A stretch of DNA of 63,574 nt, counting the filler, from Collodictyon triciliatum (Eukaryota), in the NCBI GenBank assembly GCA_043381765.1. It is 5 parts of 5 records of this genome, joined end to end, with 100 filler letters (N's around TTAATTAATTAA, not from the genome) between each part and the next. Parts side by side here need not be neighbours in the genome. Positions count along the whole stretch, not along the records: positions 6,278 to 27,252 come from JBHJMP010001210.1; positions 27,353 to 48,337 come from JBHJMP010001211.1; 3 more parts are not named here. One strand, written 5' to 3'. Positions 6,871 to 40,500 of this stretch are shown in pieces. The notes under the pieces were generated by a model. It was not told where the DNA came from. It was given only the letters and a program-made list of their open reading frames with translations, and did no database searches. The position numbers and the translations under genes are program-made. Position 1 is the first letter of the stretch, and every line of letters starts with the position of its first letter.

Positions 6871-8466
6871 ACAATAAAAAAAAATATCAGCATCAGAACA
6901 GCGTTTGTAGGTGTAAAATATGTGTGATGGAATGTAAGAAAGTCGTTGTTCAAGGAATGGATAATTACCTATCTACTACAACTTTTGCAAATCCAAAGTC
7001 TGTAATTTTCAGGTATCCGTTACTGTCTAGAAGCAAGTTTTCTGGCTTCAAGTCTCTATACACAATATCCTGTCTATATTATTATAATTTACTAAAATGC
7101 TAATAAAAATCCACCGAGCAAATACAAGACAGAGGGTTTCTAAAATAGATTTAAAAGGAATGAAAATCAAAATAAGCAATTTAATTCTTTGAATCGAATA
7201 AAGGAAAAAAAATAAGCAATTTAATTATACACACTCATTCAAAAATTCTTGAAACGGACTCGTTTATAAATTTAACTTACGAGTGAAGATATTCGAGAAT
7301 GAGCACGATCTGAGCAGCATAGAATCTTGCTGTTTCTGGTGGGAATCTTCCCATCCTCCTCAAATGTGTAAAGATTTCCCCACCGTTTACAAACTCGAGG
7401 AGCATATATAAATGTCTATCGTCTTGAAATGAAGCGTATCTGATAGGTAAAAGAAAGTAAGGTAAAAGAAATCGCATATGAGAAATATTCGAATTATATC
7501 ATACTTGACAGTTTTCTATTTTTTTCTTCTTGTTGAGAAAATCGCAAGTCGACCTGAACACTTACAATGTGACTATGAAAGGATGTCGGATGCTTGACAT
7601 GAGTCTCTTCTCTGTGTTTATATGTTCCACTTGCTTCAAGCGAACGATATCCAGCTTTTTCATTATTTTCATGGCATAATACCTATCACTTTTCTTGAAT
7701 TGACATACTTGGACTCGCCCAAAAGTTCCTGTGCCTAGTGAATATTATTGTCTGATTACAACCTCATATTTTCTTCTCAATTTTTTTTTAAAGAAACCAA
7801 AATAATTGTAAAAAAAAATTGATACATGAAAAAAATTATAAAATCCATGATATGCATAGGGATGTATAACTATATAATCCGATTCATTTGGAGCTTGATT
7901 TTTTTTTAAACTCGACATCTATTACAAAAAGACTAGAAGGAAAAAAAAAGGATATGAGGAAAGAAGAAAAGTTAACGAATGAGTGTGAGCTATTGAATAC
8001 CTATGACATCTCTCATTTCAAAGTCAGACAGAGAAGTGTCCTTGAGAGAGCGGCAATGATCTTGGAACGACTGGAGTAAATGTGCCATAAGGACAGGAGG
8101 AAGCAAAGGGACAGACGAATGCGGCTTGTCGTGAAAGGGATGAGTCTCTCCCAAGGCGTCTGTTTCGGGGTCTGTGTCAGGAATGGACTCCAGCTTCGTC
8201 TCCACTTCGCTTTGGACTTGGGTTGTGGCAACACACGCATTTTCGGCCTCGGAGCCTGTTGAGGCCATTGCAACAGCAGCGGTGTTTCCTTGCTCTGGAG
8301 ATATTCTTGGACACTTTGCAGGGGCGGACGAGTCGGGCTCCGAGAGCGGACGGATCAGGCTCTGCTTGTGGGTGGCGTGCGTGGCTTGTGACTTTTGCTG
8401 GGCTGACTCGACGGATTCTTTGTGGTCAAGGGCTTTATCCATCGGCCTGTGTCGTTTGAACTGCAT
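6533..8466 (-). CDS. cAMP-dependent protein kinase catalytic subunit (PKA-C/PRKX-like) with long disordered N-terminus; 3' part lost at the contig join
   Basis: Spliced motifs [89 protein letters not shown]. Confidence 0.93.
7169..7226 (+). mobile_element. Micro-insertion copy 1: CTTTGAATCGAATAAAGG + A-run between 18-bp direct repeats
   Basis: AAAATAAGCAATTTAATT at 7169-7186 and 7209-7226; core at 7187-7204; lies in a PKA intron. Confidence 0.65.
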
Positions 8467-8743
8467 GTTTATTTCCTTTCTTTTATTTATTATCTATTAC
8501 TAGTATGAAAGTAGAGGCCTCGCTTGTCTGATCAGAGCAACAGGATCACCCACACACGCACAAGCACGCAGGCAGGCAGGCTATGCTTTGTGAGCATTGA
8601 TTGTGTGTGTGATTCGGGTGTGTTTTGATCAACAGAATATTTCCAAATGCGGAATATAAATATAGGAATTCATCAGGCAAGGCTGGCAATTAGGCAGGGA
8701 AGAGGAGCATAGATACAGGAGAGGAAACGCGGGTGTGCATCGG

Positions 8744-37132: not shown

Positions 37133-37556
37133 TATATCAGACTGTTAGTAATAATAAAATGTCTTTACATATATTTGCCCATGATTTTGGATTTCTTACT
37201 AGAAAAAAAAAAAGGGTGATATAATCCTTGCAGGAAAAGATTGGAGGTCGAATTTTTTTCAAGCGTATTTGCTGCACTTTTCAGACCTTTTTGTGCGTCA
37301 GAACATATGTGGCGTGGCCCAAATATACTTTGCAATATCTTGAGATTGTGGATCATTTATTTGTTTGGGTGTTTTAATTGCTCATGAGATTACTTTGGTT
37401 GAATTGGGGGGAAAATGAAAGAAAAATGGAGGGTAAGGGGGAAAAAAAAGTGGTAGGTGGTCTCTGGCGTTGAAATTCTTTAATATGCTTGGATAGGCTC
37501 TTTGGTGGTTCCTAATATCAATATGTTGAAGAAAATAGTGGAATGCTGGATGGGAA

Positions 37557-40500
37557 TTATTCGACTGGGATAGCCTCATGGGTAAGTTCTTCTTCTTCCT
37601 CATCCCCGACGAGATTTTCTTTCTCTTCAAGAATCTGATGCAATTCCCGGAGCTCACGAAGGGCCTGGTGCGAGATGGCTCGTTCCTGCTGCAAATCGAA
37701 GACGGCTGCATGATAAATATAGGCGAGAGTTCAGATTGCTTGTCTTTGCTTTAGTAATTTTTATATTTACTATGCTTCCATTGTTTCCGTGTTTTGTTAT
37801 ACATTATGCGTTGCACTATCAGAGTCAAGAACATAATCTTTGAATCGAATAAAGGGAAGAAATAATCAGAAACATAATCACTTTGAAAACAATAAGCTCA
37901 AACATATTTTAAGACAGTTGATTTTCAAGACTACCTTATTGATAGAGCTAAATTAAACAGGTCTGATGATCAAAAACATACCTCGCTCAAGTTTATGCCT
38001 TAGCTCGGTTACTTGCGCCTCCAAATGCGAGATAATTGCATCTTTCTCTTCGATAGTCTTGAGATAAGCCTCTGATGATTTATGCACCAGTTGTGTCGAG
38101 ATATCCCCGACTGACCTCTCCGTTTGTGATGGTATTGTTTTAGCTCGAGGACTTGTCAATGGTGTTGTGGTGTCTATGAGAGAACAAAGCCCGTGTAATT
38201 ATGAGAAAGTAAAGTATGTACTAGAGTCTTAAAATTTTATTTTTTCAATTAAGTATTAATGCGCAGTACTCTTGAGATTATTTTATCTAGAGAGGATGCT
38301 TTAGCATTTACGGATGAAAAAATTACTTGAAAAATGAGTTTGGGTCTCGGCTGGTGGAGTTGTTCCTGTTGCATAATTGCAAGCATTTTAGTTTATTTAT
38401 TTGATTGACTTTTTTTATTCTTCCTTTCAATTTTGTGAGTTAATTTGATTCATTTATTGATTCATTCATTATAAAAAGAAAGCAGATGAAAATATCCAAA
38501 ACAAAACAAAACAAAACAAAACAAAACAAAACAAAACAAAACAAAACAAAACAAAACAAAACAAAGACAGTAGATGGAGCTGAGTCAAAGAATAATAAAA
38601 TGAAAAATCGTTAACATGAGAACACACCTTTATCTGCTGAATAACTGCCTTCGTTTGGTTCCTTCGGGTTAAAATCGTTAGTGTTAAAAACTGTTGTTTG
38701 AAACACAAGAAATGTCTTGACTCATTTATTTGCATAATTAATACATGTCTTAATACGTCTATGTATTATTAAATGATATATTTGTAAACAAGATTCTAAA
38801 CATGTTTTTCGCATGAGTATTGAGCTGAATATATGCTATTACCATGTATGCAACATAGTTACTAGGAAAATAGCCTGCGATTCCTTGGCAGGTACCGAAC
38901 CACCAGCCATCTTCCTCTATTACATGTCATGTTAAGAACAAAAGTCAGATGATAGTCAGAAAATTTCATTTCTATAACGTGCATTGTTTGTTATTTGGTC
39001 GAATGCACCCCGTTCTCAAAAGCGAAAAATAGAGGCCGGGATAATATCCGGGTTAGATTTTGACAAACCTTCTTGAAGAATGGTGATAACATCTCCAATC
39101 TGAAATGTTAATTCCTGCTTTTCAGCATCTCCGTCATAGTTGTATATAGCTCTGACATGTAGAAAGTTCGCTGGTGTATGTTCATCTTCAGCCATGGGTG
39201 CTGGAGTATGAGCAGAAGGGCCCAAATCAGTAGTGATAGATGGCATTGTGTCCACGAGCGAAACTGGTGTCGCATCTTGGGCGAACCCATACTATTATAA
39301 GCAAACAGTCAGATATGCATAGATATGAATCTGTGTAATGTAGGGGCTGGGCTCTTTTGATTTAAATATGTCTGTATTAAGAATTCTCCTGTGTTAGTTT
39401 TTTTCCTTTATTCGATTCAAAGTCCTTTGTGTTAACTATGGATTTCATTATTTTTTTTCTTTTTTGTTATCCGTCCATCCTTATGCTTTTTGGATGTGTC
39501 ATTGTGATTTGTTTAATAATTCGTTTATACAATCGGTGATCGATAAGTTTGCGATTTCAATAAAGAAATCGAGCAAATGAGCAATTCTTTGANNNNNNNN
39601 NNNNNNNNNNNNNNNNNNNNNNNNNNNNNNNNNNNNNNNNNNNNNNNNNNNNNNNNNNNNNNNNNNNNNNNNNNNNNNNNNNNNNNNNNNNNNNNNNNNN
39701 NNNNNNNNNNNNNNNNNNNNNNNNNNNNNNNNNNNNNNNNNNNNNNNNNNNNNNNNNNNNNNNNNNNNNNNNNNNNNNNNNNNNNNNNNNNNNNNNNNNN
39801 NNNNNNNNNNNNNNNNNNNNNNNNNNNNNNNNNNNNNNNNNNNNNNNNNNNNNNNNNNNNNNNNNNNNNNNNNNNNNNNNNNNNNNNNNNNNNNNNNNNN
39901 NNNNNNNNNNNNNNNNNNNNNNNNNNNNNNNNNNNNNNNNNNNNNNNNNNNNNNNNNNNNNNNNNNNNNNNNNNNNNNNNNNNNNCCGTGCGATTTACAG
40001 GAGGAAATTGACGAACTAAGTTGACTGCTCTTTCGCGATAACCCTCCCGAGCTTTTTTTTTTAAAAAAAATTTAGTGAAATTATACTCAATGTAATAATA
40101 AATTACACATTTCATCTTCCAAAAACCGAAAGGGATAGTAAAGTAAAGAGATGTTCCTACAGGATGTTTTTACAAATTCCTCGTACATGCTGTATGGAAC
40201 TAATGGCTCCTCTAATTCTCTCAGATATAATTTCAGCAAACTTGCGATGGAATCTGTTTCAAACGTGTAAATGATAATATTTTGGTTATATATATCGCAT
40301 GCATCGAAAAAAAATATAATTGTGATTCAACAAATTAACTATGGCATTGTATCTTGGGACGCTACGTGGATTAGAAAATCTTCGAAGGTCTACTGTGTGC
40401 CCAAGCTGATACATCTCTGTTAGCAATTTGATTTCTGTTGCATTCCCGGCAGTGTTGAAAATACTCTTGGTTTCTACACCTATTAATCCATAAATAATTT

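Follow-up and report, generated by a model that had tools for sequence, protein, structure and literature searches.

Uniform 18-nucleotide, A-tailed insertions in genes of Collodictyon triciliatum: probable tail-only copies of a LINE-like retrotransposon

The genomic stretch of Collodictyon triciliatum analysed here (assembly GCA_043381765.1; 63,574 nucleotides (nt) at its full length, referred to as the window) harbors four copies of an identical 18-mer, CTTTGAATCGAATAAAGG, each followed by an A-rich tail and enclosed by a direct repeat of its own. The copies share an identical 3' end, their flanking duplications vary in length, and the same 18-mer, followed by A10, ends the 3' untranslated region (UTR) of L008, a metagenome contig resembling the end of a long interspersed nuclear element (LINE). 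With a probability of roughly 0.7, the four units represent dead-on-arrival, tail-only copies of a poly(A)-type non-long-terminal-repeat (non-LTR) retrotransposon, that is, a LINE; judged from their sequence, they are best read as the final 18 nt of an L008-type element plus tail. In kind, such LINE debris from target-primed reverse transcription is known; copies that consist uniformly of an 18-nt tail are unusual.

Results and Discussion

Four copies of an A-tailed 18-mer between direct repeats

The 18-mer is located at positions 7187-7204, 28984-29001 and 37838-37855 on the plus strand and at 39405-39422 on the minus strand (copies 1 to 4, respectively). Copy 1 lies on the second of the five contigs in the window, while copies 2-4 lie on the third. 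In shuffled sequence 0.01 copies are expected, none of 100 shuffles contained four, and a search of the window allowing up to two mismatches yielded no additional copy. An A-rich tail directly follows the 18-mer in all four cases, forming a pure run of six to eight As in three copies and a decayed sequence in copy 3.

The insert of copy 1 (7187-7208) comprises the 18-mer and A4, or up to A8 with the As of the duplication included. It is bordered on the left by the target-site duplication AAAATAAGCAATTTAATT (7169-7186), the first As of which are ambiguous with the A-tail, and on the right by its identical counterpart (7209-7226; 18/18). In copy 2 (28981-29007), the 18-mer is preceded by an extra AGG and followed by A6, and the duplication ATACGATTCAG occupies positions 28970-28980 and 29008-29018 (11/11). 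The insert of copy 3 (37839-37870) reads TTTGAATCGAATAAAGG followed by the decayed A-rich tail GAAGAAATAATCAGA and is placed between two copies of AACATAATC (37830-37838 and 37871-37879; 9/9), the final C of the left one being common to the duplication and the 18-mer. Alternatively, the region 37809-37879 can be described as a 21-nt duplication, ATCAGA-GTCAAG-AACATAATC, the right copy of which carries a 6-nt deletion (GTCAAG). Copy 4, oriented along the minus strand, contains an extra AAGGA, the 18-mer and A7C (AAAAAAAC) at 39397-39427, with the duplication TAACACA on its 5' side (39428-39434) and an identical heptamer on its 3' side (39390-39396; 7/7).

Each copy is thus bracketed by its own perfect direct repeat, of 18, 11, 9 and 7 nt in copies 1 to 4. 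The likelihood of such repeats was assessed by applying the same scoring to 20000 random non-repetitive positions, at which flanking repeats of at least 18, 11, 8 and 7 nt were encountered with frequencies of 0.00035, 0.004, 0.024 and 0.074, respectively. Taken together, the four repeats far exceed what chance would produce. Moreover, in an unbiased search for direct repeats at short range, few pairs other than microsatellites emerged, and the flanks of copies 1-3 were among them.

The four target sites are unrelated, with mutual matches of at most 10 nt, and no repeat is common to them. The duplications start with AAAA, ATAC, AACA and TAAC. Three of the four therefore begin with A, as priming by a T-rich nicked end on poly(A) would predict; with four sites, no consensus can be derived. 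The sequence CTT(T)GAAA was observed 25-43 nt downstream of the 18-mer in three copies (7252-7260, 29033-29041 and 37881-37889). As a target motif it was dropped as post hoc, unbiased local alignment giving tail probabilities of 0.59, 0.29, 0.037 and 0.29.

All 72 bases of the four 18-mers are identical, as are all duplicated bases, which indicates that the four insertions are young. Since copy 3 is the only one with a decayed tail, it may be the oldest of the four; it is either older or the product of a messier joining event.

With respect to genes, copy 1 is situated in an intron of about 200 nt between two protein-kinase exons of a minus-strand gene and is antisense to it. Copy 2 lies in sense orientation in an intron of a plus-strand EAP30/Vps22-like gene, the upstream exon of which matches EAP30/Vps36 weakly (E 5.8e-5, below the Pfam cut-off). 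The two remaining copies are associated with the same minus-strand SH3/coiled-coil gene: copy 3 is located between exons and is antisense, whereas copy 4 is located upstream of the SH3 exon at 39016-39291 and is in sense, so that two of the four copies (2 and 4) are in sense orientation. The original prediction, made from the sequence of the window, had described the 18-mer as occurring four times on two contigs and both strands, in non-coding sequence of genes and next to a different direct repeat in each case. This description holds, copies 1-3 being placed between exons and copy 4 ahead of one.

A short insert between direct repeats could also be the footprint of an excised DNA transposon, consisting of the duplicated target and a few terminal bases of the element. 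Such an origin is the least probable of those considered. The duplications made by any one transposase are of constant length, whereas those observed here measure 7, 9, 11 and 18 nt. In addition, the insert carries an A-tail but no terminal inverted repeat, self-folding of the 18-mer is not predicted (minimum free energy 0), and no complete element whose inverted ends correspond to the 18-mer is present in the window.

A candidate parent element in a metagenome contig

The exact 18-mer was scanned for in 241 million metagenome records and 32 million prokaryote contigs, which gave 35 metagenome loci and 20 loci in prokaryote genomes. The latter number fits the approximately 17 chance matches calculated for 596 billion bases on two strands. 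Among the 55 loci, L008 is the only one in which the 18-mer is followed by six or more As (A10). Viral contigs yielded no match for the 18-mer plus AAAA, and none for P0123, the protein introduced below.

In L008, no direct repeat adjoins the unit, and the DNA is GC-rich upstream and AT-rich downstream of it. An open reading frame (ORF), which continues beyond the edge of the locus, has its stop codon 75 nt upstream of the 18-mer. The 3' UTR is thus 93 nt long; its final 18 nt are the motif, and poly(A) follows. Due to the lack of an adjoining repeat, the contrast in base composition and the ORF ending 75 nt upstream, L008 is not considered another micro-insertion.

The end of this ORF, a peptide of 74 residues (P0001), was used in an exhaustive HMMER search against 1.84 billion representative proteins. 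Two proteins were retrieved: P0122, which has 45 residues and is 98% identical, and P0123, which has 253 residues (E 6e-8). P0001 and P0123 share 34 of 72 aligned residues (47%), and the alignment reaches the C-terminus of both. P0123 contains the Pfam domain zf-RVT (E 8.5e-9; 36.4 bits at a cut-off of 27.5), according to its family entry the zinc-binding region found C-terminally in non-LTR reverse transcriptases, and 27 of its 30 nearest clusters in the language-model Atlas are zf-RVT. Cluster look-ups added P0124, which is identical over 45 residues, and P0125, which diverges upstream, both encoded on further small contigs. Since at least three further small contigs encode near-identical ORF ends (P0122, P0124 and P0125), the longer element is multi-copy. 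From these sequence comparisons, L008 is most readily interpreted as the 3' terminus of a LINE, comprising the end of its second open reading frame (ORF2), a 93-nt 3' UTR and poly(A). In the searches made, this LINE-like element has no named relative.

In the 3' UTR of L008, a second, diverged tail motif precedes the terminal one by 25 nt; the two are identical at 12 of 18 positions without gaps, a likeness reached by 23 of 20000 shuffles. The motifs compared are CTTTGTATGGCATAA (L008:130-154, minus strand) and CTTTGAATCGAATAA (L008:112-129). The second motif may have been left by an older tail or by a template jump.

The recovery of the 18-mer in L008 also bears on a technical origin, in which an adapter or a chimera primed by oligo-dT would have been carried into the assembly. 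The unit is indeed short and A-tailed, and the assembly is fragmented and contains N gaps. An adapter can not, however, yield four different perfect target duplications, and the 18-mer with A10 is present in an independent metagenome contig, where it is attached to a LINE-like ORF. In literature searches that were far from exhaustive, the 18-mer string was not found, nor was a description of such a unit under the 18-mer or under short truncated non-LTR insertions. An artefact is accordingly hardly credible, and the match to a library adapter that had been named as a danger to the original prediction receives no support from the duplications and the L008 match, no search of an adapter library having been made.

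Target-primed reverse transcription as the probable mechanism

The constant 3' end, the A-tail, duplications of 7-18 nt, unrelated AT-rich targets and the predominance of duplications starting with A together correspond to the anatomy of target-primed reverse transcription. In the proposed course of events, the endonuclease of the element would nick one strand within AT-rich DNA, and the freed 3' end would prime on the poly(A) tail of the element RNA. The reverse transcriptase would then copy the tail and just the final 18 nt of the 3' UTR. Joining of the complementary DNA to the opposite side of a staggered break, at a distance of 7 to 18 (perhaps 21) nt, followed by gap filling, would finally duplicate the target.

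Several results weigh against this interpretation. None of the 147 ORFs of at least 90 residues in the window matches a reverse transcriptase or an endonuclease. L008 originates from a metagenome and not demonstrably from C. triciliatum, and the evidence for the parent is the zf-RVT domain of its relative P0123, the reverse transcriptase and endonuclease domains of the parent itself not having been seen. P0001 has no Pfam match, and word-index protein searches with P0001 and P0123 yielded no relatives of greater length. The hexamer AATAAA stands only 2 nt ahead of the tail, and the 7-nt repeat of copy 4, taken alone, is within chance (0.074). Finally, the start of all four copies falls on the same C, with an uncertainty of one base, which is a misfit, since random 5' truncation predicts a spread of end points. 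In line with this uniformity, the window contains neither copies of a shorter tail, TAAAGGAAAA being confined to the four known copies, nor copies running on into the adjoining sequence of L008 (...GCTACA).

The original prediction had proposed 5'-truncated LINE ends inserted by target-primed reverse transcription. Its core gained from the finding that the same 18-mer with A10 ends the LINE-like 3' UTR of L008, but the variable 5' end that it had listed as a hallmark is replaced by a common start, preceded in two copies by 3-5 extra bases. Likewise, the search that it advised for a full-length parent led to a candidate, the ORF end of which is 47% identical to the zf-RVT-bearing P0123; that candidate comes from a metagenome contig, the available part of which stops short of the catalytic domains.

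The original prediction had also considered templated repair. In this case, breaks would be filled from an abundant polyadenylated RNA or by templated synthesis of the polymerase-theta type, with no LINE endonuclease taking part. The shortness of the inserts would suit such a process, as would the messy tail of copy 3, which partly repeats its target (ATAATCAGA adjoining ACATAATCA). However, the identical 18 nt recur at four unrelated sites and equal the 3' end of a LINE, and a local template is lacking: local alignments of the flanks with the 18-mer score 6, 7, 9 and 7, with the above tail probabilities of 0.59, 0.29, 0.037 and 0.29, no better than random AT-rich DNA. Duplications of 7-18 nt, moreover, are not a usual product of end joining. 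A repair patch is therefore disfavoured and considered very improbable.

The fixed 5' end

The extra bases at the 5' junctions of copies 2 (AGG) and 4 (AAGGA) do not match L008 and have no clean match to the target; they repeat the unit's own 3' end (AAAGG followed by A). They could be a second, very short copy of that 3' end, or untemplated. Non-LTR reverse transcriptases add or copy a few further bases at the ends of their templates, and such additions would be expected at two of the junctions if the enzyme ran off the true 5' end of a short RNA.

A hairpin acting as stop or recognition element for the enzyme was rejected, since the minimum free energy of the 18-mer is 0 and all of 200 shuffles fold at least as well. 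The 3' end of L008 likewise folds no better than its shuffles (z -0.16). Microhomology with the targets was also considered as the cause of the fixed 5' end and is not shown by the sequences.

The fixed 5' end, the extra junction bases and the second motif of L008, taken together, hint at a discrete template. Within the reading as tail-only LINE copies it is tentatively suggested, at somewhat less than even odds, that this template was a short 3' fragment of the LINE RNA, comprising 18 nt and poly(A). Such a fragment, the preferred cause of the fixed 5' end, would have arisen by cleavage, or by 5'-to-3' decay up to the bound protein. A strong stop of reverse transcription at the base in question is an alternative cause, and the fixed length is possibly a sampling accident of only four copies.

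A further, rather doubtful, step is to regard the 18 nt and poly(A) as a discrete mobile unit and not as an accident of truncation. Such a unit, whether a defined piece from the 3' end of the LINE RNA or a separate transcript, might then suffice for the enzyme and be copied up to its true 5' end. The second motif of L008 and the AGG and AAGGA of the junctions might be traces of end-to-end template jumps between short RNAs.

The same observations can be accommodated by an independent minimal non-autonomous retroposon, comparable to a very small short interspersed nuclear element (SINE) or to the Drosophila suffix. In that case, an RNA consisting of roughly 18 nt and poly(A) would be transcribed from a separate locus and would borrow the LINE machinery by means of its LINE 3' tail, and the copies would be full-length and not truncated. 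The common 5' end of all four copies is what such an RNA would give, extra bases at two junctions are expected from run-off of the reverse transcriptase at a true RNA 5' end, and the diverged second motif of L008 (12/18; 23 of 20000 shuffles) hints at a module acting as a unit. Suffix, as outlined in the cited report, provides a precedent in kind, being found on its own in short copies as well as at the 3' end of the F element (PMC1868783). On the other hand, any known internal promoter is too large for 18 nt, the whole window contains no Rfam match at the gathering score and hence no recognizable small RNA, and neither a source locus nor a transcript has been seen among the evidence from the four copies examined. 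SINE heads derive from transfer RNA, 7SL or 5S RNA and contain an internal polymerase III promoter, a trait absent from the 18-nt unit and its tail; a 3' tail shared with a partner LINE, another SINE trait, is present, as the 18-mer and an A-run end the LINE-like 3' UTR of L008. Overall, an independent retroposon is judged improbable, and tail-only copies of a LINE are preferred.

Comparison with known retroposed elements

The units most closely resemble 5'-truncated, dead-on-arrival copies of poly(A)-type LINEs such as L1, with which they have in common a shared 3' end, an A-tail, duplications of variable length and an AT-rich target. L1-type copies occasionally carry extra bases at the 5' junction, as do two of the copies described here, and the ORF end of the candidate parent is related to a zf-RVT-bearing ORF2 tail. 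In contrast to L1-type copies, the truncation points of which are spread, all four copies keep exactly 18 nt and are far shorter than typical.

Drosophila suffix occurs as separate dispersed short copies and also as the 3' end of the non-LTR F element (PMC1868783, PMC3136478). As far as these accounts describe it, it thereby resembles the present unit in being a discrete short sequence that is both dispersed and the 3' end of a non-LTR element. The two differ in that suffix, according to the same accounts, includes the last domain coding for reverse transcriptase and has its own transcription, whereas the unit described here is an 18-nt untranslated tail with no known transcript. Suffix is said to be a few hundred bases long.

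Platy-1, of about 100 bp, is presented as 'the shortest known SINE in primates' (PMC4864456). Going by that report, SINEs of the Platy-1 type share with the present units their shortness, the A-tail, the target duplications and mobilization by LINE machinery. Unlike SINEs in general, which have a head derived from a small RNA and containing a promoter, the 18-nt unit has neither, consistent with the negative Rfam result. In chimeras of U6 and L1 that arise by template switching, a short 3' piece of L1 with an A-tail forms the 3' side of the insert, and the enzyme switches template at the 5' side of the L1 piece (bioRxiv 10.1101/2025.02.02.635956). Compared with the chimeras as outlined there, the present copies have no second RNA attached, but at most the 3-5 extra bases AGG and AAGGA. 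The nearest precedents, suffix with the F element and SINEs of the Platy-1 type, are longer by an order of magnitude.

If the fixed length of 18 nt holds genome-wide, the insertions would be a natural demonstration of a minimal LINE 3' end for target-primed reverse transcription, and recognition by the enzyme beyond poly(A) would become directly testable with an 18-nt tag. As young insertions with a polarised presence/absence state, they would, moreover, provide a practical marker within introns of a protist lineage that has been poorly sampled. Since two of the four copies are in sense, the units could supply cryptic AATAAA polyadenylation signals inside genes. Should the less likely discrete mobile unit prove true, it would be the smallest retroposed unit described, spreading ready-made AATAAA signals in introns in either orientation. 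If, in contrast, the length is a sampling accident of four copies, the insertions are ordinary LINE debris.

Other features of the window

The window consists of five contigs (1-6177, 6278-27252, 27353-48337, 48438-59577 and 59678-63574), which are connected by joins of the form N44-TTAATTAATTAA-N44 at 6178-6277, 27253-27352, 48338-48437 and 59578-59677; besides these joins it contains two larger N gaps. Repeats or apparent duplications that cross a join carry no meaning. This applies to several of the candidates found when the window was inspected for other A-tailed insertions with duplications, all of which were at chance level.

The genes are of an ordinary eukaryotic type with introns. They include a GAF-phosphodiesterase, a protein kinase, a cyclin-like ORF, V-ATPase H and F-BAR/SH3, as well as an RFC-like AAA protein, a cystathionine-beta-synthase-like protein (PALP+CBS), ribosomal S21e, an LRR-Roc-COR-kinase and COG3. 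Parts of the region 29600-39590 are present in nine of the ten public runs listed, the best shares being 0.30 and 0.22, and freshwater metatranscriptomes contain pieces of this region in small shares.

The non-coding DNA is rich in long perfect microsatellites, among them (TCATTA)46, (AAT)30, (CAAAA)14, (ATTCAACC)13 and an 11-nt A-rich unit. Microsatellites are located at 27353-27627, 32004-32178, 34433-34536, 36561-36649, 38497-38565 and 6101-6177, and some of those in the window extend through open reading frames.

A 12-mer, CAAGCTCCAAAT, is found on both sides of a 1.85-kb stretch on the minus strand (7898-9775) that ends in A9. This stretch holds GC-rich (0.565) cyclin-like ORFs, while the GC content of the surrounding DNA is 0.29-0.37. 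Because it appears to hold an intron, and because a single 12-mer match is within chance for the scan used, the stretch is probably not a retrocopy.

The ROCO gene, encoding the LRR-Roc-COR-kinase (48533-54354, plus strand), displays two unusually long unbroken ORFs of 595 and 618 residues, in contrast to the short-exon genes by which it is surrounded. On the minus strand, positions 56729-57901 comprise an ORF of 390 residues without introns, which is related to phytanoyl-CoA-dioxygenase-like proteins and has a lysine-rich low-complexity extension at its N-terminus. Its relatives are mostly from metagenomes and prokaryote bins; the one matching best (49% identity) is a transcript of a protist, labelled Diphylleia rotans by its source.

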